A stretch of DNA of 64,000 bases from Escherichia coli. GTDB lineage: Bacteria > Pseudomonadota > Gammaproteobacteria > Enterobacterales > Enterobacteriaceae. The stretch lies in assembly GCF_003019035.1 (NCBI RefSeq), contig NZ_CP027447.1. The stretch is one strand, 5' to 3'. Below are positions 62,997-63,929 of this stretch, piece after piece; within the stretch, counting starts at the first letter, position 1, and every line of letters begins with the position of its first letter. The notes below the pieces were generated by a model, which ran no database searches, was not told the DNA's origin, and saw only the letters and a program-made list of their open reading frames with translations. The position numbers were made by a program, and so were the translations under genes.

Positions 62997-63929
62997 TCAG
63001 GAGAGATATTTATCGAACCATTTCAGCGTCCTTTGCCAGGCAAGATCGGCGGCAGATTTGTCATAACGGGGCGTGGAATCATTATGGAATCCGTGATTAA
63101 CCCCCGGATAGATATACGCCTCATAGACCTTATTATTGGCTTTCAACGCCGCCTCGTAAGCAGGCCAGCCCTCGTTGATTCGGGTGTCCAGTTCCGCGTA
63201 GTGGAGTAGTAAAGGCGCTTCAATCTTCGCCACATCGGCAGTGGGTGCCTGTCGACCATAAAACGGCACCGCGCAGGCCAGTTCCGGATACGCGACAGCC
63301 GCCGCGTTCGATACGCCACCGCCATAGCAAAATCCGGTAATACCCACTTTGCCTGTCGCTTGCGGATAGCGTTGCATAAACTCAATTGCGGCAAAGAAAT
63401 CATTCATCAGTTTGGTTGGATCAACCTGCTGTTGCAGCTCACGACCTTTATCATCATTACCCGGATAACCTCCAACGGAACTTAAGCCGTCAGGTGCCAG
63501 GGCGATATACCCCGCCTTCGCCACTCGCCGTGCCACATCTTCGATATACGGATTCAGTCCACGATTCTCATGCACCACCACTACGGCTGGCGTTTTGCCG
63601 CTCATCTTTGCGGGCTTCACCAGATAACCCCGCACCTCGCCGTGACCATTTGGCGAAGGATACGTGATGTACTCAGCAACAATTTCCGGGTCGGTAAACT
63701 CTACCTGAGTCGCCAGCGCATAATTTGGCTTGAGCAAATCAAACAACGCTAATGCCGTCATCCCGCCTACCGCATACTTCGCCGCAAGGTTGAGGAACTC
63801 ACGTTTCGAGATTTTCCCGTGAGCGTAATAGTCGTAGTAATCCAGCAACTCTTGTGGGAAATCTTTGGCGGTTAAACGCGGCATCATTGCACTCCTCAGT
63901 TGGTGTTTTTTTAAGCAAAGCATAAGCAC
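62997..63929 (-). CDS. Dienelactone hydrolase family protein (yghX-like, intact here)
   Basis: 310-aa ORF with alpha/beta-hydrolase nucleophile elbow GFCYGG; start uncertain (several in-frame Met). Confidence 0.75.
   Translation of the reverse strand: MLMLCLKKHQLRSAMMPRLTAKDFPQELLDYYDYYAHGKISKREFLNLAAKYAVGGMTALALFDLLKPNYALATQVEFTDPEIVAEYITYPSPNGHGEVRGYLVKPAKMSGKTPAVVVVHENRGLNPYIEDVARRVAKAGYIALAPDGLSSVGGYPGNDDKGRELQQQVDPTKLMNDFFAAIEFMQRYPQATGKVGITGFCYGGGVSNAAAVAYPELACAVPFYGRQAPTADVAKIEAPLLLHYAELDTRINEGWPAYEAALKANNKVYEAYIYPGVNHGFHNDSTPRYDKSAADLAWQRTLKWFDKYLS

Follow-up and report, generated by a model that had tools for sequence, protein, structure and literature searches.

The closest described relatives of the locus treated here are the YghX proteins of Escherichia coli. 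They are collected in a curated family model (NCBIfam NF041440, YghX family hydrolase) and represented by the protein WP_001309763.1 and by a crystal structure from strain O157:H7 Sakai (PDB 4ZV9). In K-12 MG1655 the gene yghX (b4658) is annotated as a pseudogene, and an overlapping gene of 47 codons, yqhI (b4755), is annotated as well. Thus the gene, its family model, the crystal structure and the pseudogene status in K-12 are all already in public annotation. The yghX locus of K-12 has served as a neutral site for integration. For YqhI, an earlier paper reports detection by chromosomal epitope tagging. A later one found it induced at low Mg2+, independently of PhoQP, and described a deletion phenotype that was not complemented by YqhI itself. 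According to a 2026 preprint, only a handful of proteins of the DLH (dienelactone hydrolase) family have been characterised, on differing substrates; in the same work no activity of purified O157 YghX ("EcoDLH") could be detected with the phosphotriesters paraoxon or FDDEP. In the literature on yghX and 4ZV9, where the structure serves as a template or panel member, we found no enzymatic activity or phenotype for YghX.

We analysed a stretch of 64,000 nt of E. coli DNA, called the window in the following. Its minus strand holds at 62997..63929 an uninterrupted ORF of 310 amino-acid codons that begins with GTG, its bounds taking in the stop codon, with the motif GFCYGG. A sequence-only reading had taken this ORF for an intact dienelactone hydrolase gene next to yghW and for the ancestral functional allele of a gene that is frameshifted in K-12. 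The ORF list bears out the continuous frame with its motif and supplies the strand, which that reading had not given. Taking identity, intactness and ancestry together, we put the probability that this ORF represents yghX, a core gene of E. coli, in its intact form at about 0.9. The features needed to place the gene are:

62997..63884, minus strand: yghX coding sequence, 295 codons plus stop, from the ORF list, the RefSeq bounds, NF041440 and Pfam DLH
63885..63929, minus strand: 5' extension of the mechanical ORF up to its GTG at 63929, probably untranslated leader and not coding
63892..63897, minus strand: Shine-Dalgarno-like GAGGAG, 7 nt upstream of the ATG at 63884, the same in K-12
62591..62878, minus strand: yghW (DUF2623), the next gene downstream of yghX

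The translated frame matches NF041440 over the complete model (positions 1-292 of 292) with 587.8 bits against a curated cut-off of 460, and Pfam PF01738 (DLH) over the complete profile (positions 1-217 of 217) with E=3.6e-48 and 164.5 bits against a gathering score of 21. Judged by these scores, which are far beyond chance, yghX is not a chance frame. In strain WP2-W18-ESBL-08, whose DNA is 100% identical to the window over 62880-64000, the RefSeq bounds of yghX are exactly 62997..63884 (WP_001309763.1, "YghX family hydrolase"). Except for a private extra ATG, there is no difference of substance from the described E. coli family. The proposal of an intact dienelactone hydrolase gene therefore holds for the ORF and for the family, but its 310 codons are a mechanical maximum and the true coding sequence has 295.

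The start at the ATG of 63884 follows from the RefSeq bounds, from the N-termini of the orthologues of other genera, which open with MPRLTAKDF or MTRLTAKDF, from the spacing to the GAGGAG element and from the private nature of the ATG upstream of it. A start at the GTG of 63929 (310 aa) was rejected in view of the RefSeq start, the orthologue starts and the position of GAGGAG. We also rejected the first ATG (63885-63887), which is private to the window allele and only 4 nt away from the ribosome-binding site. It is due to a T at 63886, where all nine alleles compared, K-12 and eight others, have a C, so that the window reads ATGATG instead of ACGATG. Being only 4 nt from the Shine-Dalgarno element, this extra ATG is probably of no consequence.

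The gene adjoins the hyb operon. Its neighbours are hybB, hybA, hybO and then yghW on the same strand, and on the other side the divergent gpr, which begins just past the end of the window; yqhA and yghA are also listed. Its placement next to yghW is thus correct, yghW being the downstream neighbour on the same strand. Between the yghX stop (62997) and the yghW start (62878) there is a perfect 11-bp inverted repeat at 62891-62916, TCGCTATATAT-N4-ATATATAGCGA, which K-12 shares unchanged and which precedes the yghW start codon by 13 nt. Since the repeat is not followed by a T-run on the gene strand, it resembles a terminator of yghX less than an operator or promoter element of yghW. A scan of 62400-64000 for promoters and terminators returned sites no more numerous than in shuffled sequence, and we claim no promoter here.

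The K-12 locus has the same arrangement, with hybO, yghW, yghX and then the divergent gpr. An alignment of the yghX region of the window with that of K-12 MG1655 gave 99% DNA identity and two frameshifting deletions in K-12:

63774..63776, minus strand: codon Y37 (TAT), affected in K-12 by a 2-bp deletion (TA), intact in the window
63414..63416, minus strand: codon T157 (ACC), affected in K-12 by a 1-bp deletion (one C), intact in the window

As the two deletions total 3 bp, K-12 regains the frame after codon 157; the 120 codons between the lesions are read out of frame, with many stops. The K-12 allele thus has both deletions, the resulting stops and the annotation as a pseudogene, whereas the window allele has neither deletion. 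The proposal of a frameshifted K-12 gene agrees with the MG1655 annotation and with the alignment, although there are two frameshifts and not one, and no identical intact ORF was found in K-12 when the proposed alignment was made.

What remains in K-12 is the 47-aa YqhI. Its published sequence, MPRLTAKDFPQELLDYYDYYAHGKISKREFLNLAAKCGRRDDGISVV, consists of YghX residues 1-36 followed by 11 out-of-frame residues, CGRRDDGISVV, which result from the 2-bp deletion. In the K-12 MG1655 sequence used for comparison, yqhI occupies positions 5598-5741, corresponding to 63741-63884 of the window. Judged by this correspondence, what K-12 still translates as the "small protein" YqhI is a stump of the YghX leader, to be regarded as the remnant of a pseudogene. 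The later of the two YqhI papers names neither yghX nor a pseudogene, and in the earlier one yghX appears only as a flanking gene in a table. Detection and induction of YqhI in K-12 imply that the promoter and the ribosome-binding site of yghX are active. Strains with an intact gene, such as that of the window, would therefore make full-length YghX under such conditions.

The residues shared with YqhI belong to an N-terminal segment which resembles an export signal:

63711..63884, minus strand: N-terminal leader, codons 1-58, putative Tat-type export signal, from Pfam PF23678 and the homologue alignment
63789..63809, minus strand: codons 26-32, twin-arginine-like S26-K-R-E-F-L-N32 whose first Arg is replaced by Lys; R28 and F30 are nearly invariant in the homologue alignment

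This leader is composed of a conserved n-region of acidic and aromatic character, the S-K-R-E-F-L element, a mildly hydrophobic stretch and A-L-A before T59. Pfam PF23678 ('YqhI-like') matches residues 1-36 with E=1.6e-21. Among 1.84 billion representative proteins, a homologue search gave 4,901 relatives at E≤1e-10. When 30 full-length relatives were aligned, the N-terminal consensus was LYDxYxHxxxxRRxFL, after which come a stretch of mild hydrophobicity and an Ala-rich site. The dipeptide in the motif was RR in 53, KR in 12, HR in one and RK in one of 67 scorable representatives, and KR in 120 out of 120 close enterobacterial relatives. In the window protein the hydropathy of the h-region (residues 33-51), averaged over 15 residues, peaks at 1.55, and A56-L57-A58 precedes T59. 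This low hydrophobicity is as expected for Tat leaders. The crystal chain of 4ZV9 aligns from residue 59 on and is without residues 1-58.

Compared with described Tat signals, the element matches the consensus S/T-R-R-x-F-L-K at five out of seven positions, the weakly hydrophobic stretch and A-L-A are present, and the distant homologues carry the true RR of canonical signals. In contrast to canonical signals, the first Arg is a Lys in all enterobacterial members and the n-region is 25 residues long and conserved. The window protein, with S-K-R-E-F-L-N, does not have the canonical RR, and the model TIGR01409 (TAT_signal_seq) did not match the E. coli leader. Because of the K-R in place of R-R and the unusually conserved n-region, we do not file it as a canonical Tat signal. 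Among the homologues, one (P0154) scored 17.4 with this model against the cut-off of 16.7 and another (P0128) 16.4. Natural K-R Tat signals that still export exist, for instance that of Salmonella TtrB. A literature search joining dienelactone hydrolase with twin-arginine returned nothing relevant.

The mechanism suggested by these features would be that residues 1-58 serve as an export leader of the Tat type in its KR variant, which is cleaved after A-L-A58 and releases the mature enzyme into the periplasm. Judged by leader and homologues, we lean slightly towards the view that the ancestors of the YghX family were exported by Tat and that its E. coli member still is, via its K-R leader.

The segment before the K-R/R-R motif (codons 1-25, window 63810-63884) is kept even in homologues of 36-68% identity. 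For a signal peptide this 25-residue n-region is unusually long and conserved, and the segment could have another role.

The alternative which survives best is that YghX is an active but non-exported hydrolase, whose residues 1-58 form a cytoplasmic or membrane-associated YqhI-like domain with the KR as a relic of a Tat signal. It would account for the uniform KR, not RR, of the 120 close enterobacterial relatives and for the missing match of TIGR01409 to the E. coli leader. Furthermore, an n-region (DFPQELLDYYDYYAHG) so strongly conserved is unusual for a cleaved leader. However, most of the distant homologues keep RRxFL, the mildly hydrophobic stretch and an AxA-like site, and some of them attain the TAT_signal cut-off. 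The K-R of TtrB does not prevent export, and residues 1-58 are absent from the crystal chain. We regard the non-exported state as rather unlikely, yet as a serious rival. Beyond export itself, we suggest only tentatively that YghX may be a Tat substrate that has gone unrecognised and varies between strains, a periplasmic cysteine hydrolase without cofactor, with the conserved n-region maybe a docking site for a dedicated factor.

Downstream of the leader the protein consists of the hydrolase domain with its catalytic residues:

63003..63635, minus strand: dienelactone hydrolase (alpha/beta-hydrolase) domain, residues 84-294, from Pfam PF01738 and PDB 4ZV9
63327..63329, minus strand: Cys186, nucleophile in G-F-C-Y-G-G, aligned to the nucleophile position of the Pseudomonas enzyme
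63186..63188, minus strand: Asp233, acid of the triad, in an invariant column, aligned to the Asp of the Pseudomonas 'gqD' segment
63093..63095, minus strand: His264, base of the triad, nearly invariant, aligned to the His of the Pseudomonas 'agHsf' segment

In the 295-aa protein the motif GFCYGG occupies residues 184-189 (window 63318-63335). Cys186 pairs with the Ser that the aligned variant 4U2C has in the G-Y-x-L-G-G motif of the Pseudomonas enzyme, and Glu106 with the active-site Glu of the Pseudomonas carboxymethylenebutenolidase. All four residues, Cys186, Asp233, His264 and Glu106, are invariant or nearly so in 31 homologues down to 36% identity. By alignment, the Cys lies in a G-x-C-x-G elbow and the triad has the order Cys, Asp, His of the DLH family. 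Residues 59-294 match 4ZV9 with E=7e-161 and the triad is conserved there; in the native part of the chain there are only three differences (V68F, S134N, Y231F), and at each of them the window has the residue of the family consensus. Judging the fold by near-identity to this solved chain, residues 59-295 are an alpha/beta-hydrolase of the DLH family. By analogy, the thiolate of Cys186 would attack the carbonyl of an ester, lactone or thioester to give a covalent acyl-thioenzyme, which would then be hydrolysed with His264 as general base and Asp233 as the acid.

Family membership raises the question whether YghX is a dienelactone hydrolase in the strict sense (carboxymethylenebutenolidase, EC 3.1.1.45), working in chlorocatechol degradation like ClcD of Pseudomonas knackmussii (PDB 1DIN, 4U2B and related entries). 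The two share the Pfam family, in which YghX scores so well (E=3.6e-48), as well as the Cys/Asp/His triad, and the active-site Glu can be aligned. However, ClcD is distant in sequence, with low identity (E about 1e-14), has no N-terminal leader and sits in a chlorocatechol operon, whereas YghX has a leader of 58 residues and an unrelated gene neighbourhood. No catechol or chlorocatechol ortho-cleavage cluster was found around yghX, where the neighbours are hybB, hybA and hybO of the hybOABC genes, yghW, gpr, yqhA and yghA. Moreover, the putative export leader would be ill-suited to a cytoplasmic catabolic pathway, and the few characterised members of the DLH family differ in their substrates. 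A chloroaromatic pathway role was rejected on gene context, a chloroaromatic dienelactone is unlikely as the natural substrate, and this assignment as a whole has very little probability.

To see how widespread the lesions are, we counted them in 5,426 complete E. coli genomes with short queries centred on each deletion, such that any 28-mer seed has to cross the junction. At site 1 (codon 37) the 2-bp deletion was found in 1,248 genomes, and the TA was present in 843 with a GTA variant and in 2,785 with a GTG variant; about 10% of the genomes are unscored at this site due to nearby SNPs which break the 28-mer seed. At site 2 (codon 157), where the count is more complete, 1,199 genomes had the 1-bp deletion and 4,221 were intact. 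The window's own 42-mer had to be rejected as the sole probe for the intact state of site 1, as it finds only the 843 genomes: the linked synonymous GTA/GTG polymorphism breaks the seed. Thus, yghX has been lost through small deletions in about 23% of the complete E. coli genomes, a figure that covers these two deletion sites. The carriers are not only laboratory strains of K-12: many were isolated from humans, pigs, chickens, dogs and wild birds, which makes the lesion a natural one and not a laboratory artefact.

Two strains have the 2-bp deletion alone, are labelled "frameshifted" in RefSeq, and have a linked synonymous T at 63834 in common with K-12. From this distribution it appears that the 2-bp deletion came first and that the 1-bp deletion was added later in a nested sub-lineage.

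A few genomes deviate in other ways. In 10 of the 5,425 E. coli genomes with a match less than 80% of the region is covered, and one further genome has no match at all. In NZ_CM130730.1 (487101-487314) 19% of the region is kept, annotated as "dienelactone hydrolase family protein". A plasmid carries one of the matches, and two to three copies occur in some genomes. These cases may represent further independent losses or duplications.

The direction of the change can be read from the relatives. Citrobacter koseri, Pseudescherichia, Enterobacter, Kosakonia and Leclercia have intact orthologues of 294-298 aa with 85-93% identity. Within E. coli, yghX is likewise intact in those sampled alleles that diverge most (95.7-97.3% DNA identity), and the deletions were seen only in alleles at least 99% identical to the window. 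For the 21 pairs among seven intact E. coli alleles dN/dS was 0.02-0.10, at dS of up to 0.29; the sole value above 0.10 belongs to a near-identical allele pair with 2 differences. Intact outgroups, intact divergent alleles and low dN/dS together lead us to conclude that the intact state is ancestral and has been under purifying selection. The word "ancestral" in the sequence-only reading is therefore justified. Its "functional" gains indirect support from the dN/dS values and the intact catalytic triad, but goes further than the literature, which reports no activity for YghX. That intact yghX should be a silent or decaying gene without current function, its open frame merely not yet hit, would agree with the loss in about 23% of complete genomes at no known cost and with the lack of a reported phenotype or activity, but is highly improbable in view of the low dN/dS across E. 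coli lineages at dS of up to 0.29, the conservation of length and triad across genera, and a promoter and ribosome-binding site which in K-12 still drive translation of the stump.

Regarding the history of the window allele itself, five sites of the 3' half (63027-63459) agree in state with the three E. coli alleles that diverge most (L007-L009), either with all of them or with some. At these same sites K-12 matches other intact alleles (L005, L006, L010), and the 5' half of the window allele resembles K-12 and the O157 group. This mosaic of sites hints at a recombinant allele. Since the window allele differs at several 3' sites at which K-12 agrees with other intact alleles, the K-12 allele does not descend from it directly.

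Judged by titles and abstracts, the literature mentioning yghX deals mostly with metabolic engineering of E. coli. In itself the finding matters little, as the gene, its family, the structure and the pseudogene status are already public. What this analysis adds are the exact lesions and their order, their frequency of about 23% and the purifying selection on the intact allele, furthermore the corrected start codon, the reading of the leader as Tat-like and the interpretation of YqhI as a stump of that leader. K-12 is a natural yghX null, and phenotypes of YghX must therefore be sought in other strains. If YghX is indeed a Tat substrate, it would be missing from the substrate lists based on K-12, as K-12 has lost the gene, and the low-Mg2+-induced YqhI of K-12 would be a mere expressed stump of a Tat leader. 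The periplasmic location suggested by this leader would also narrow the search for the substrate of YghX.
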